Positions 2,861-60,906 of a stretch of 64,000 bases of DNA are shown one piece after another. The DNA is taken from the sequence record MH719082.1. One strand, written 5' to 3'. Origin of the DNA: Escherichia phage vB_EcoM_IME392. Every line of letters begins with the position of its first letter. Within the stretch, counting starts at the first letter, position 1. Position numbers and translations under genes: made by a program. The notes beneath the pieces are model-generated. The model was not told the origin of the DNA and did no database searches. It was given only the letters and a program-made list of their open reading frames with translations.

Positions 2861-2893
2861 CAGTTTAACAGCCTTTCGACGCTAATTAAAGGT
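2861..2893 (-). promoter_or_regulatory. conserved leftward promoter-like motif, copy 1 (3' half divergent)
   Basis: core GTTTAACAGCCTTTCGAC; ends 21 bp upstream of start codon at 2840. Confidence 0.45.
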
Positions 2894-3197
2894 GGTCTTT
2901 AACAGTTCCCAGGATAGCTTCTCTGGTGTGGATTAGGCCAGATCGATTAATCTCTACTTTGGTGGTAGTCACCATTTCGAATACTTCCAGCTCAATACCA
3001 GGATGAGCCATGCATGTATGAATCAATACAGACAGAGCATCATCATAGCTGGGATAACCAGTGGCATATTTATGATTGTCGTTCCACAGGCGGTCGGTTG
3101 CATGCCTGCGTTCGCTGATGTAAGATATCTTACCTTCTTTCATCCGGCCTACATAATACTTAGCTTCGGAATTATCCGAAATATGTAACGTTTCCAT
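2886..3197 (-). CDS. hypothetical protein
   Basis: ORF; start at internal ATG 3197 with AGGAGA RBS. Confidence 0.5.
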   Translation of the reverse strand: METLHISDNSEAKYYVGRMKEGKISYISERRHATDRLWNDNHKYATGYPSYDDALSVLIHTCMAHPGIELEVFEMVTTTKVEINRSGLIHTREAILGTVKDHL

Positions 3198-3241
3198 AAT
3201 TTCTCCTAATGGGGAGTTTTTACCTCCCCCGAGCAAAGGTA

Positions 3242-3487
3242 TTAGAATGGGCTATGACGAGATTCCGTTACTTGCAGACCGGAGAGGATCTGACCGATAA
3301 AGTCATAGCTTACACCATCTTCTACAGATGTAATCTTAACTTCATTGGTATTTTCGATCTTCTGGCCAGTTGCCAGTAATCCGTTAGGGAGGACGACGCC
3401 TACGAATTCACGAGTATCGACTGGCTTACGAAAGTGCTTCTTAGCTGGTTTCTTATGTCTCATGAACGGATTGTTATTATAAGGCAT
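3242..3487 (-). CDS. hypothetical protein (basic N-terminus)
   Basis: 81-aa ORF, ATG start. Confidence 0.45.
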   Translation of the reverse strand: MPYNNNPFMRHKKPAKKHFRKPVDTREFVGVVLPNGLLATGQKIENTNEVKITSVEDGVSYDFIGQILSGLQVTESRHSPF

Positions 3488-3794
3488 TGTCTGATTCCCC
3501 TTTTATAGTATGATCTTTGAAAACTCTTAAACTATACGGATTCTCTATTTCTTCGAACTGTAGACCATCAAAGCCATGTATCATATTCACATAGTTCATA
3601 CTATACATAGTAATTCTGATTTGCCAGATCGTCGAATTAGAGGACTTACGAAATACTCTACACGGCTCACTAACTACAGCACCCTTAATCTTCCCAAGTT
3701 CCCTGAGAATACCAGTTATGTCCTCGATCTCGCAGAACGATTGAAAGATGCGGGATGGACATCGTCTTATGGGACTAACGTCTGAACCATACAT
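3477..3794 (-). CDS. hypothetical protein
   Basis: 105-aa ORF; weak RBS; motif copy 52 bp upstream. Confidence 0.3.
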   Translation of the reverse strand: MYGSDVSPIRRCPSRIFQSFCEIEDITGILRELGKIKGAVVSEPCRVFRKSSNSTIWQIRITMYSMNYVNMIHGFDGLQFEEIENPYSLRVFKDHTIKGESDNAL

Positions 3795-3845
3795 AATTTT
3801 ACATAATAGGTAAGTTGGACACAGAAGGACGCAGTCACGCCTCCA

Positions 3846-3881
3846 CCGTTTTAACAGCCTTTTAGGTCATTAAAACGGCGG
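3846..3881 (-). promoter_or_regulatory. conserved leftward promoter-like motif, copy 2 (palindromic variant)
   Basis: CCGTTTTAA-CAGCCTTTTAGGTCA-TTAAAACGG; perfect 9-bp inverted repeat around core. Confidence 0.45.
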
Positions 3882-3888
3882 AGTTCAA

Positions 3889-4680
3889 TCAGTACCGAGG
3901 ATCAGTATCCTGATAGTCGCGAATTAGGTCATAGACGAGCACATCCAGACGAGTAGCATCTTCACGTTTCATGCGGGTAGGTCTGTACATATGGATACAT
4001 ACACAATGCTTAGACCAGACCTTAGCAGTCTGACGCTCCGTAAGTTCTTTACGGTCGATAATGTACTTCTCGAATGCGTGATAAGAGATAGGCTTTGATA
4101 CTTCGACATGCTGGCACATATCGAGGAACTGCGGGTAGTCGTCAGTTAAGAAGCGACTGAATACGTCCTGGTAATAAGAGTAGTTAGGGAATTTACCACC
4201 CTGCTCCAGAGATAACGCATGAGTCTCGATCTCCTTCAACATCAGAGCCATAAATTCCTGATTATTGCTGGGAGAGGTCCACATGTTTATCTCGCAGTAA
4301 TCTAACCGAGGGGAATAAACACGTACCTGAGTCTCGTGAGGAGTATACGTTTCGTGAGGGCTTCTGATAAAGAGAGTATCAGCATCTACATAGGAGTAAC
4401 CACGAAGATCCATCATTACCTGAATCTTGAGTCGCAGATAGTCACATACAGAGGCCATCTTAGCCTTAGTTTTCAGGATATTATACGCCTTCTCCATAAT
4501 AGGATCTCTGGCGAATAAATCCTGGATCATAACGCAACGGCAACCTTCGATAATATTCTCTTCGTTATCGATCACCAGTACATGATCATTAGGTCCGTAT
4601 TTCTGTAAGGACTTAATGCATTCCCGAACATGGATAGGCATTTTGGGTCCTACCCAAAGCTGGAAATAATTCTGACTCAT
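3889..4680 (-). CDS. GT32-like (DXD-motif) glycosyltransferase
   Basis: 263 aa; N-terminal YFQLWVG (cf. IHQIWIG), DYLRLKI...YVDADTLF (cf. DxxRyxxLyxxGGxYxDxD); RBS AGAGGTAA. Confidence 0.55.
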   Translation of the reverse strand: MSQNYFQLWVGPKMPIHVRECIKSLQKYGPNDHVLVIDNEENIIEGCRCVMIQDLFARDPIMEKAYNILKTKAKMASVCDYLRLKIQVMMDLRGYSYVDADTLFIRSPHETYTPHETQVRVYSPRLDYCEINMWTSPSNNQEFMALMLKEIETHALSLEQGGKFPNYSYYQDVFSRFLTDDYPQFLDMCQHVEVSKPISYHAFEKYIIDRKELTERQTAKVWSKHCVCIHMYRPTRMKREDATRLDVLVYDLIRDYQDTDPRY

Positions 4681-4904
4681 AGTTACCTCTATGTTATTTA
4701 TTTTAAACTGGATAGGGACTAATAAAGTAAATAGTAATTAAATACTTATTAATCTTCCTCTTATCTAATGCTAAGGGAAGCGTACTCGAGGAGTACAGAA
4801 GCTTAGCGAAGAGCGGAGTAACCATTTGATTTAAACAGTCACCGTAGAGAGCGAAGGAGTCGCGCCCGCTTGAGGCGGCGCGACCTCCGCTTCACCAATC
4901 CTAC

Positions 4905-5032
4905 CGGATGGACGCCTGCGACCACCCGAGCCTACCCCTGCCTCACTCACTAAAGCCACTTCGGGCTTTACCTCGTTCCGCTACGCGATACGCAGGCAGA
5001 TAGCTACACTAAGTCCCCTGGAGATGGCTAGT
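4905..5032. ncRNA. structured non-coding element, copy A (paralog of 59890-60010)
   Basis: ORF-free; hairpin AAAGCC-ACTTCG-GGCTTT (4952-4969) enclosed by 7-bp helix GCCTGCG(4914-4920)/CGCAGGC(4991-4997); about 70% identical to copy B. Confidence 0.35.
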
Positions 5033-5311
5033 AAGTATCCGTTACCAGACCATGTCCAACCTAACATTGACGAAGCCAGGGACTAGGCACTCCTCGCCAA
5101 TAAGCTACATTAGGATTTATGTCCGTATTTCGAAGATAGGCCGATCGGGGAGACTATGCATTCATCTCTGCTCAACCAGGAAGCACCGATTAGGGTAAAT
5201 ACCCAAACTATCTTCTTAATGTCACTCCTCCCAGACCGCTTCGGGACTTAGCTTAAGTCTTATCCGAATAATCTGGCATCTACGACGGACCGTAGTGTAT
5301 GGAGCGTACTG

Positions 5312-59450: not shown

Positions 59451-59474
59451 AATTTCTCCTAACAGTAGTTCTGA

Positions 59475-59509
59475 CACCTTAACAGCCTTTCGGCACCTAA
59501 AAAGAGCGG
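59475..59509 (-). promoter_or_regulatory. conserved leftward promoter-like motif, copy 11
   Basis: CACCTTAACAGCCTTTCGGCACCTAAAAAGAGCGG. Confidence 0.45.
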
Positions 59510-59510
59510 C

Positions 59511-59744
59511 CTACGAATCTTCCAGATCTACTAAGTATTCGATCTTGAGTCTGAATGGCCCCATATACTGGGTAATAGCCATAATCCTACCATTCTCCTT
59601 TTCCCATATCCATGGTGCTGGTGGCTTAGGAGTGTCCTTAGGAACATAACCCATATTGGCTAGTTTAGCTATTGCTACTCTTCCGACAGCCTTCCCACCA
59701 GCCTTAGACTGGGAGGTAATATACTCTTCAGTAACTACGATCAT
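59511..59744 (-). CDS. hypothetical protein
   Basis: 77 aa; GAGGAA RBS. Confidence 0.5.
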   Translation of the reverse strand: MIVVTEEYITSQSKAGGKAVGRVAIAKLANMGYVPKDTPKPPAPWIWEKENGRIMAITQYMGPFRLKIEYLVDLEDS

Positions 59745-59889
59745 TAATAGTGTTCCTCAACATAATCAAATAATAACTCCTAAACTAATGGACGTAGGAA
59801 CTACCGGCCCCTTATCTAATTTAACCAATTGGAGTGTAGCGGCGGCTGGCGGAGCCGCCGCGTACACGAGACTAAACTCCTCCGGAGAG

Positions 59890-60010
59890 TCTGACCTTGC
59901 CCACCCGAGCCTCCCCCTGGGATTCGCTCCCTAAAGCCACTTTGGGCTTTAACTCGCTCACCCTACGCGTGACGCAAGGTATACTACGTAGATGCCCCTA
60001 AGAATGTTGA
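59890..60010. ncRNA. structured non-coding element, copy B (paralog of 4905-5032)
   Basis: hairpin AAAGCC-ACTTTG-GGCTTT; closing helix ACCTTGC(59894-59900)/GCAAGGT(59974-59980); conserved CCACCCGAGCC and CTACGCG blocks. Confidence 0.35.
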
Positions 60011-60273
60011 GAGGGTATAAACCTTAGTGTAGTTCGCATCAGTCCCCACTAAGGTCTCGACAATACCTTCATCCTCTATCCAGTTCCGGACAATCTGAAT
60101 AGGGACACTACCTAACTATTCGTAATGCAACCATAGCCGGAGACGTAACTTAATCGTGCCCTATGTATACGCATTACTTAATGAGAGTATATAGTTGCTC
60201 TTCCCAGACTATCGAATCTGTTTTACGGAAGAGCAGCTATTAGGCCGTTAGGTGCCTTAATAGAACTCAGCTA

Positions 60274-60444
60274 TTAGTAAAGCTTCACTACTTTGTTAGA
60301 TACCCAGGACTGAGGGTTGGCAGATTCCACCATTTTGTCGTAGGCACGATCTGCTTGATCTTTAGTCTCAAATTCCGCAATTACCGAGTGAACTGATGGA
60401 GCATCCCGAGCAACAATACTACTTACAATAAGTAACTTAAACAT
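60274..60444 (-). CDS. small protein with signal-peptide-like N-terminus (absent from ORF track)
   Basis: ATG 60444 overlapping stop of upstream gene (ATGTTTAA); 56 aa MFKLLIVSSIVARDAPSVHS... Confidence 0.3.
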   Translation of the reverse strand: MFKLLIVSSIVARDAPSVHSVIAEFETKDQADRAYDKMVESANPQSWVSNKVVKLY

Positions 60445-60796
60445 GAGTCATCCTCCTGGAGCGGTCGCAGGAGTCCCAGATTGCGTTATATACTCTCTTA
60501 CCATCTTCGTAAGATAGACCGTAAGCATCACCATTACAGTCAATTAACGCACTTACTCCTCCCAGCTTAATTTCCGGACCGTAAATATCGTTATAGACAT
60601 GGATTACACCATTAGCGCTTACCCAAGTCCATGTATCTTTACGAATCATCCGGATTTCGTCATTATCTAGCATTCTGATAAATTCGGTAGGATCCCCAGT
60701 ACGGATCATATTCTCATAAGCTAGTCGCTCTTCCGATTTAGTCAGTAAGGGAATTGCTGGAACAGTTTTAAATATAGATTTTAATTTCTCAAACAT
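60437..60796 (-). CDS. hypothetical protein
   Basis: 119 aa; tandem duplicated SD GGAGATATTA x2 upstream. Confidence 0.5.
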   Translation of the reverse strand: MFEKLKSIFKTVPAIPLLTKSEERLAYENMIRTGDPTEFIRMLDNDEIRMIRKDTWTWVSANGVIHVYNDIYGPEIKLGGVSALIDCNGDAYGLSYEDGKRVYNAIWDSCDRSRRMTHV

Positions 60797-60871
60797 ATCT
60801 TAATATCTCCTAATATCTCCTAAGACTATTCACATAGAGCACCATCAGATGCTCTATAGGAATAACCTCTA

Positions 60872-60906
60872 CAGTTTAACAGCCTTTCGACCCTTAGAAA
60901 GAGCGG
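60872..60906 (-). promoter_or_regulatory. conserved leftward promoter-like motif, copy 12
   Basis: CAGTTTAACAGCCTTTCGACCCTTAGAAAGAGCGG. Confidence 0.45.

Follow-up and report, generated by a model that had tools for sequence, protein, structure and literature searches.

A two-block repeat was found in exactly 12 copies, each 35 to 40 bp long and all sharing one orientation, in a stretch of 64,000 nucleotides (nt) of Escherichia phage vB_EcoM_IME392 (sequence record MH719082.1), which is here called the window. Judging from sequence comparisons, we consider it probable that this motif is a phage-specific promoter acting at the DNA level, most likely of a middle class. This reading draws on the strand lock of the motif (12 of 12 copies in the window and 24 of 24 in the related phage EP_H11), on its placement in intergenic gaps ahead of ribosome-binding sites, on one copy at a divergent gene junction and a tandem pair ahead of tRNA genes, on the constraint acting upon both blocks and on its conservation in a distant relative, together with the lack of a common RNA structure and of a canonical sigma70 site at the copies. 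The original prediction had proposed a phage-specific promoter for early or middle leftward transcription; the promoter part is still the best-fitting reading, whereas the genes served favor "middle" over "early".

On the gene strand, the motif has the consensus CCGCTCTTT-N6-(G)TCGAAAGGCTGTTAAA-N-T-G. Block 1 is preceded by A/T-rich bases, often by the stop codon of the preceding gene, and xGGAGG often comes after the motif. The functional orientation is the minus strand, which is the sense strand of the leftward genes. A search with the pattern TTTAACAGCCTTTCGAC-N6-AAAGAGCGG, allowing up to three mismatches, gave 10 matches in the window, all on the plus strand, and none in 100 shuffles. The exact core AACAGCCTTT occurs 12 times, always on the plus strand, starting at 2867, 3853, 5318, 6845, 7028, 7086, 7691, 8715, 55687, 56762, 59481 and 60878. 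The 12 copies predicted originally were all recovered in this way, their given starts lying 6 to 9 nt ahead of the core: 6 nt in ten copies, with 1 and 3 nt more for those given as 3846 and 6836. A position weight matrix (PWM) was built from the 12 copies and both strands of the window were scanned with it, resulting in 12 hits at 47 to 69 bits; the next best hit, at 9.7 bits, was the palindromic shadow of one copy. Because of this gap from 47 to 9.7 bits, hidden copies can be excluded, as can copies on the other strand or between 8.8 and 55.6 kb, in agreement with the single orientation claimed before and with the claimed absence of the motif from the rightward structural module. This 43-kb virion module, which contains the terminase, the tail spikes and a lysin-domain protein, lies between flanking leftward non-structural genes; the window also carries dUTPase, dCTP-deaminase-like and glycosyltransferase-like genes.

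Eight of the 12 copies end 18 to 83 nt before a minus-strand start codon when the orthologous EP_H11 annotation is used, a slight shift from the 16 to 81 bp previously claimed for these eight. The other four (first given as 5312, 6836, 7022 and 7080) are in or around a tRNA island, in which tRNA-Met and tRNA-Arg were located. The copies and the two tRNA genes are as follows:

60872 to 60906, minus strand: motif copy, CCGCTCTTT-CTAAGG-GTCGAAAGGCTGTTAAA-CTG; starts 0 nt past the upstream stop codon and ends 78 nt before the ATG at 60796; ortholog at EP_H11 50200.
59475 to 59509, minus strand: motif copy upstream of a small gene, 1 nt past the upstream stop codon, with GGAGAAATTATG about 27 nt downstream; ortholog at EP_H11 51597.
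56756 to 56790, minus strand: motif copy with the block 1 variant CCGCCGTTT; ends 30 nt before the ATG at 56728 of a 3'-5' exoribonuclease-like gene.
55681 to 55715, minus strand: motif copy overlapping the last 14 nt of the upstream gene; the ATG at 55663 is 20 nt on.
8709 to 8743, minus strand: motif copy at the head of a leftward unit, in a divergent intergenic region with no leftward gene upstream; 18 nt from TTAAC to the ATG, with GGAGG between.
7685 to 7719, minus strand: motif copy with perfect consensus, 2 nt past the upstream stop codon; the hairpin TCGGAGGtaatTCCTCCGA comes next, and the copy ends 83 nt before the start (7604) of an endonuclease-V-like gene.
7080 to 7114, minus strand: motif copy, upstream member of the tandem pair, in the last codons of the endonuclease-V-like open reading frame (ORF), before the tRNA island; kept in the relative L134.
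7022 to 7056, minus strand: motif copy with perfect consensus, downstream member of the tandem pair; the pair is spaced 58 bp and lies upstream of the tRNAs.
6839 to 6873, minus strand: motif copy with the block 1 variant ACACTCTTT, about 580 nt upstream of tRNA-Arg.
6190 to 6265, minus strand: tRNA-Arg, in the tRNA island.
5645 to 5720, minus strand: tRNA-Met, in the tRNA island.
5312 to 5346, minus strand: motif copy downstream of tRNA-Met, heading a 640-nt noncoding stretch that leads to a glycosyltransferase-like gene (3889 to 4680).
3847 to 3881, minus strand: degenerate motif copy (CCGCCGTTT...CCTAAAAGGCTGTTAAA); ends about 55 nt before the ATG at 3794.
2861 to 2895, minus strand: degenerate motif copy (CCACCTTTAATTAGC-GTCGAAAGGCTGTTAAA); ends 23 nt before the ATG at about 2840, upstream of a gene for a 179-residue protein and a helicase gene.

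Conservation in related phages

EP_H11 (111,373 bp) is the only close relative in the phage collection; it shows about 91 to 93% nucleotide identity and has the opposite orientation. A scan of both strands of its complete genome revealed 24 copies; every one lies on the strand that encodes the non-structural genes, and the structural module (59.7 to 97.3 kb) has none, which extends the strand lock of the window to a whole genome. The sole hit on the opposite strand was the shadow of a palindrome-embedded copy. Of the 40 same-strand gaps that measure 40 bp or more, 22 contain the motif. Block 1 starts 0 to 8 nt past the upstream stop codon in 12 of the 24 copies and overlaps the 3' end of the upstream gene by 11 to 14 nt in five, and 18 to 34 nt separate TTAAA from the next start codon in 14 of the 24. 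The genes served encode a topoisomerase, a methyltransferase, a glycosyltransferase, a deacetylase, a nucleotide kinase and a 5'-nucleotidase, as well as DNA polymerase, ligase, exoribonuclease, an endonuclease-V-like protein, helicase, tRNAs and runs of small ORFs. Since these belong mainly to DNA replication, nucleotide metabolism, DNA modification and tRNA functions, they point to a middle rather than an early class.

Constraint was measured as substitutions per site on 11 pairs of orthologous copies from the window and EP_H11. The values were 0.030 in block 1 and 0.048 in block 2, compared to 0.136 in the N6 spacer and 0.09 to 0.12 in the flanks, a rate of change 3 to 4 times lower for the blocks, which indicates that both blocks are under purifying selection and that the spacer is free. 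A third relative, the Logan contig L134 (86% protein identity), keeps five of five orthologous copies with different spacers. At the divergent junction, the least conserved part with respect to EP_H11 is the 35-nt segment immediately upstream of the copy at 8709 to 8743, while the motif blocks are intact; accordingly, no other conserved leftward signal adjoins this copy.

A homologous motif was identified in Acinetobacter phage Ab1-TPeters (109.8 kb), which has the same genome layout. It reads (G/C)CTGTYTCTTAA-N8-10-AAAACCTGTTAAG-N-TGT-x-GGG and has at least five complete copies, each of them on the plus strand, which is the gene strand. The architecture in common, a CTCTT-type block followed after about two helical turns by AAA..CTGTTAA..TGT, therefore predates the E. 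coli phages. Strand-locked bipartite repeats were also seen in more distant phages. Vibrio phage 1.031.O (L132) has AACCCCT-N4-GAGTYTT-N5-AACCCCTTTCTTTTGTGG, and Ralstonia phage RP13 has the intergenic repeat AACGAC(G/T)CTAT-N10-GACCTTGTA near its beta' genes (L011, positions 3700, 7533, 15463, 19154 and 22696). Exact and degenerate motif scans of the IMG/VR and JGI metagenomes gave only chance-level singletons, which suggests that the lineage is rarely sampled; a scan of IMG/VR with beta' peptides gave nothing. Literature searches found no description of the motif consensus and no account of transcription for IME392, EP_H11, RP13 or YerA41.

Length, high conservation, restriction to one lineage and the lack of other carriers in the collection scans would also suit a DNA repeat with no part in transcription, for instance a target for replication, packaging or modification, or a miniature selfish element. 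We regard this as very improbable, because the perfect match with gene orientation, the fixed short distance to ribosome-binding sites and the absence from one whole module would be unexpected for such a site. Besides, there are no terminal inverted repeats or target duplications at the copies, and their placement is orthologous in the three phages.

Proposed promoter elements and candidate machinery

Position statistics, like the folding and boxA comparisons below, were obtained from a pooled set of 42 copies. The sequence AAAGGCTGTT is invariant (42/42), and the near-invariant positions are T (42/42), A (41), A (40), T (39) and G (42/42), this last T and G being located two and three nt past TTAAA; an A is present five nt beyond the invariant G in 35 of the copies. 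The 3' block consequently reads TGnTAnnnT, similar to an extended -10 element, with a purine at start-site distance. Sigma70-type -35/-10 pairs were not enriched in positions 1 to 9500 of the window (22 found vs 18.3 expected), and a sigma70 consensus scan of the same region gave no site that coincides with a copy; where TTGACA would be expected at -35, the copies have CTTTTG or a similar hexamer. The earlier statement that the copies show no -35/-10 pair thus holds, with the amendment that the 3' block is extended -10-like. Region 2/3 of sigma70-family proteins reads the extended -10 as TG at -15/-14, T-12, A-11 and T-7. The corresponding TG-n-TAAAnT of the motif (T 42/42, A 41/42, T 39/42) is a consistency check rather than evidence of sigma70 binding, and the variable positions of the 3' block are those tolerated in the extended -10 code. 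On this basis, a sigma70-family holoenzyme may be involved.

The arrangement that we propose is the following. The motif would fire the leftward units for DNA replication, nucleotide metabolism, DNA modification, tRNAs and small genes, in a middle or delayed-early-like fashion. The centers of block 1 and CTGTTAA are about 23 bp apart, a distance that corresponds to the -35/-10 geometry of a sigma70-family promoter. At the end of the 3' block, TG-n-T-A-A-A-n-T-G fits the extended -10 code, and a sigma70-family holoenzyme would probably melt the DNA there, while block 1 (CCGCTCTTT) and the invariant TCGAAAGGC would take the place of the -35 hexamer, presumably being read by a phage-encoded specificity protein or a phage-remodelled polymerase. 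The start is predicted 1 to 7 nt past the conserved T-G, that is, from the start of core AACAGCCTTT minus 6 (the invariant G) to minus 12, with the conserved A at minus 11. In the shortest leaders, with 18 nt to the ATG, it could be no further downstream without losing the ribosome-binding site.

A related possibility is that each copy is a host sigma70 promoter of the ordinary extended -10 type, with the conserved upstream 25 bp as an operator for a phage repressor or activator, so that the motif would set timing and not polymerase specificity. It overlaps the explanation that we prefer, the sole difference being the supplier of specificity. T-12, A-11 and T-7 of TGnTAnnnT are nearly invariant, extended -10 promoters need no -35 element, and an imperfect direct repeat in the motif (GCTCTTT / GCTGTTA, spaced by about two helical turns) could offer a site for a protein that binds as a tandem dimer. 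However, the 42/42 invariance of block 2 runs across spacer and -10, which is more than an operator requires, no helix-turn-helix regulator was identified, and the probable hypermodified T of the virion DNA would alter the sigma70 contacts at T-12 and T-7. On balance this alternative appears improbable; if true, the finding would be an ordinary one.

The hypermodified thymidine is expected in both EP_H11 and IME392 from an SP15/YerA41-type DNA polymerase and an aGPT-pyrophosphorylase gene (PMC12686479; bioRxiv 10.1101/2025.03.26.645540). EP_H11 has a 5-hydroxymethyldeoxyuridine (5-hmdU) DNA kinase domain. Outside the region that corresponds to the window, it also carries a bacterial-type RNA polymerase beta' subunit, split over two genes and 27 to 31% identical to E. 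coli RpoC. The N part (29676 to 31244) contains Rpb1 domains 1-2 and is 31% identical to RpoC residues 20 to 514; the C part (26582 to 28096) contains Rpb1 domains 3-5 and aligns to RpoC residues 570 to 990. This split beta' gives the lineage the means for a transcription specificity of its own. Queries with E. coli RpoB, RpoC and RpoD and the Vibrio sigma protein matched only these two pieces. Homologs of beta' were found in Ab1-TPeters (38% identical), RP13, Rhizobium and Vibrio phages and YerA41; the gene is unsplit in the Vibrio phages, and Vibrio phage 1.031.O also encodes a sigma70-family protein. The situation is the same in Ab1-TPeters and, apparently, in RP13, which have beta' but no detectable beta or sigma.

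Among proteins examined as possible readers of the motif, p251, whose gene is directly upstream of the beta' N part, is conserved between EP_H11 and Ab1-TPeters; its model, with a predicted local distance difference test score (pLDDT) of 52, had no fold match in the PDB. The model of a neighboring protein of 483 amino acids (aa) (pLDDT 72) had no PDB fold match either, and the 28 homologs of this protein show no Pfam domain. The 483-aa protein and a 303-aa protein of EP_H11 had no match in Pfam, PHROG or PDB sequences. No member of the MotA or AsiA families was found among about 50 window and EP_H11 proteins scanned against Pfam, a scan that left out most small ORFs.

A more daring version of the promoter reading, which we offer tentatively and hold to be rather doubtful, is a system not yet described in which the split phage beta' would replace the host beta' in the E. 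coli core, requiring neither phage beta nor phage sigma, and the hybrid enzyme plus a small phage factor would read the motif of about 40 bp, possibly only with hypermodified T. If true, middle transcription would be restricted to phage DNA, and the Ab1-TPeters and RP13 motifs, together with a second class of element shared with Vibrio phage 1.031.O (see below), would be cognate promoters across the beta' clade. The lineage concerned is sparsely sampled (IME392, EP_H11 and Ab1-TPeters and, more distantly, RP13, YerA41 and Rhizobium and Vibrio phages) and its phages probably have hypermodified thymidine and also carry a beta' gene of bacterial type that stands alone. The 12 to 24 defined sites per genome would allow one to ask who transcribes such DNA, whether the phage beta' becomes part of the host enzyme and whether base modification plays a role in recognition. 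A compact, strong and infection-specific promoter, if the motif is one, would also be useful for engineering these phages.

RNA-level alternative and neighboring features

Several observations weigh against the promoter reading, and part of them bear on whether the signal acts in RNA. The first seven or eight bases of boxA, that is, its 5' half, are matched by CGCTCTTT of block 1. Inverted repeats reported previously around the copies with cores at 3853 and 6845 were confirmed and have enclosing arms of 14 and 11 bp, respectively. At 3853 the arms are CTCCGCCGTTTTAA and TTAAAACGGTGGAG (fold of -25.5 kcal/mol, z = -5.0), and this 14-bp stem is maintained in the EP_H11 ortholog (z of -5 to -6) with G-U-compatible differences, which suggests that such enclosing stems form in RNA. 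The 11-bp repeat at 6845 is perfect (ACAATTTAACA/TGTTAAATTGT) and is kept in EP_H11 and L134. Copy 9545 of EP_H11 is followed by a canonical terminator hairpin. Furthermore, 18 of the 40 EP_H11 gaps have no motif, and neither do the regions upstream of the EP_H11 beta' genes, where a second conserved strand-locked element, AAATAAAACGA-N17-AAGCCCGTTCTTTTGGGTGGGGCG plus a variable GC-rich hairpin, is found instead; hence the motif is not the sole signal. Sigma70 spacing would place the starts of the shortest leaders inside the GGAGG ribosome-binding site. As for the enzyme, tblastn and phmmer queries with RpoB, RpoD and the Vibrio phage sigma detected no homolog in EP_H11, the window or 84 kb of Ab1-TPeters, and a Pfam scan that covered the majority of the non-structural EP_H11 ORFs with 300 aa or more gave no T7-like RNA polymerase domain. 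Finally, literature searches yielded no transcriptome data, and hence no transcript 5' ends, for IME392 or EP_H11.

The second element has five copies in EP_H11, where it also precedes some small genes, is absent from the window and resembles the AACCCCTTTCTTTTGTGG repeat of Vibrio phage 1.031.O. Its locations are:

EP_H11 (L002), gaps 2175 to 2328, 24927 to 25080, 25321 to 25452, 28798 to 28904 and 36516 to 36630.
L135, positions 55 and 4837.

The motif is thus one of at least two lineage-specific classes, and a cascade would be consistent with this, in which the class of the second element would act first and the present motif second. Many motif-free gaps of EP_H11 (for instance 2175, 24927, 41559, 53670 and 109749; L002 to L004) show textbook intrinsic terminators, often with a UUCG loop and a T-run, from which it follows that a bacterial-type polymerase transcribes those arrays.

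An RNA-level site in polycistronic leftward transcripts, already named as the alternative in the original prediction, would either load an antitermination complex, with NusB/NusE at a boxA-like block 1 and a phage-specific partner at block 2, or serve as a place of cleavage or binding for an RNA-binding protein of phage or host. In addition to the stem kept at copy 3853, it would account for copies that begin right past stop codons within gene arrays and for the many UUCG-type intrinsic terminators in other gaps. The gamma-proteobacterial boxA consensus is GYTCTTTAANA (bioRxiv 10.1101/091223). Positions 1 to 7 (GYTCTTT) are present in 26 of the 42 copies, but the full consensus is in none, the critical C at position 4 is lost in several copies (CCGCCGTTT), and block 1 of Ab1-TPeters, CTGTYTCTTAA, is not boxA-like. 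No boxB-type stem-loop with covariation was found, the only invariant closing pair being one of 2 bp around GAAA, and a boxA/nut site was rejected given that the 5' half alone matches. The copies have no shared RNA fold (median z = -0.65), and the only strongly structured loci are three: copy 3853 with its ortholog, copy 6845 and EP_H11 18879, where a similarly enclosed copy has z = -11. The idea of a 5' stem-loop was discarded as not general, since structure in the 40 nt that follow the copies did not exceed that of random windows on the same strand (p = 0.71). Rfam at gathering score reported only the two tRNAs, and E-value scans of the tRNA island and of 59.7 to 60.9 kb gave nothing at the copies. 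A hammerhead-like CUGAUGA...GAAA was an artefact of one spacer variant (TGATGAG), the spacer not being conserved. The copy at the divergent junction, with no conserved promoter adjoining, and the complete lack of copies in the 43-kb late operon also speak against an RNA site, and the tandem pair 58 bp apart is hard to account for by one. Taken together, these results weaken the RNA-level alternative, which we now consider unlikely.

At the orthologous copies EP_H11 32906 and L135 4407, the core AGGCTGTTAAC base-pairs with GTTAACAGCCT further downstream, which is adjoined by a T-run; the loops differ, and the result is a terminator-like hairpin over the motif core that is kept in two phages:

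EP_H11 (L002), 32887 to 32960: terminator-like hairpin over the motif core.
L135, 4390 to 4460: terminator-like hairpin over the motif core.

Read-through RNA would be terminated by this hairpin, while a transcript initiated just past the core would have no 5' arm and would escape termination, as expected of a promoter overlapping a terminator. Overall, the evidence favors a start signal at the DNA level, and some copies may have a role in RNA.

Other features of the window were noted near the copies and the module borders. The minus-strand gene at 7062 to 7604, flanked by copies, encodes a T4 endonuclease-V-type pyrimidine-dimer glycosylase whose homologs carry PF03013. The noncoding gaps at 4681 to 5320 and 59741 to 60440 have a 76-nt segment in common, 82% identical, that may represent paralogous small RNAs; Rfam gave no match for these segments. 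Facing the copy at the divergent junction, 55 nt within 8744 to 8832 (plus strand) are nearly fully conserved with EP_H11 (one mismatch) and contain TTTACA-N17-AAAGAT, a candidate sigma70-like promoter of the rightward structural module. A further candidate rightward promoter, TTGACA-N18-TAAATT, is found past a terminator hairpin at 15951 to 16099. Where the rightward and leftward modules converge, a strong hairpin with flanking A-runs and T-runs looks like a bidirectional terminator. The virion module includes a pair of large tail-spike genes, one with a match to a family for colanic-acid degradation; EP_H11 appears to differ in this part of the module, which suggests a host-range cassette. 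The coordinates are:

4922 to 4994 and 59901 to 59976, minus strand: shared 76-nt segment with the hairpin AAAGCC-CGAAGT-GGCTTT.
39045 to 42032 and 42156 to 44777, plus strand: tail-spike genes.
52072 to 52125: hairpin GGGACTCACTC...GAGTGAGTCCC.

Comparison with known systems

Phage-specific promoter classes are well known, and the present consensus matches none of the promoter or RNA classes with which we compared it. The boxA of lambda nut sites and rrn leaders, where NusB/NusE bind, resembles block 1 in its 5' bases only: the 3' half AANA is absent in 42 of 42 copies, no boxB hairpin accompanies it, and there are 24 copies per genome as opposed to one or two per operon. Promoters of phage sigma factors, such as gp28 and gp34 of SPO1, are likewise bipartite, with -35/-10-like spacing, and define one temporal class. 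Yet no sigma homolog was detected in EP_H11, the window or Ab1-TPeters, and a conserved spacer is atypical for recognition by sigma only.

Jumbo phages with a non-virion RNA polymerase, such as AR9 and phiKZ, combine non-canonical DNA, homologs of the large RNA polymerase subunits and a promoter consensus of their own (PMC7598289), and in these three respects they are similar to the present lineage. Their promoters, however, are short, with four to six specified bases (3'-UUGU-N6-AU on the AR9 template), whereas the motif described here is long, and in place of the AACA (-11 to -8) and TA (-4/-3) of the AR9 non-template strand our gene strand has TGTT. The polymerases differ as well: those of AR9 and phiKZ consist of highly diverged beta/beta' sets plus a fifth subunit, while EP_H11 has a bacterial-like beta' and no beta was found; the match between its beta' and that of an AR9-like Staphylococcus jumbo phage is weak (27% over 38% of the length). 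T7-group promoters, with 23 conserved bp from -17 to +6, are also long, near-invariant, strand-locked sequences between genes without intervening terminators and have an A/T-rich segment right before a conserved G. The motif has in addition an upstream block and a variable N6, and no T7-like polymerase was seen among the ORFs scanned.

Middle promoters of T4 have a MotA box at -30 and a sigma70 -10 element, and they function through sigma appropriation by MotA/AsiA. The T4 MotA box, (a/t)(a/t)(a/t)TGCTTtA near -30, has no counterpart in the motif, which contains no TGCTT, and the upstream element is different in build, with about 25 bp, two blocks (CCGCTCTTT and TCGAAAGGC) and an invariant spacer region. 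In spite of these differences, T4 middle promoters represent the closest functional analogy: in both cases a sigma70-like -10 (TAnnnT) is combined with a phage-specific upstream element in place of the -35 hexamer, many copies precede DNA-metabolism genes, and the class would lie between early and late.

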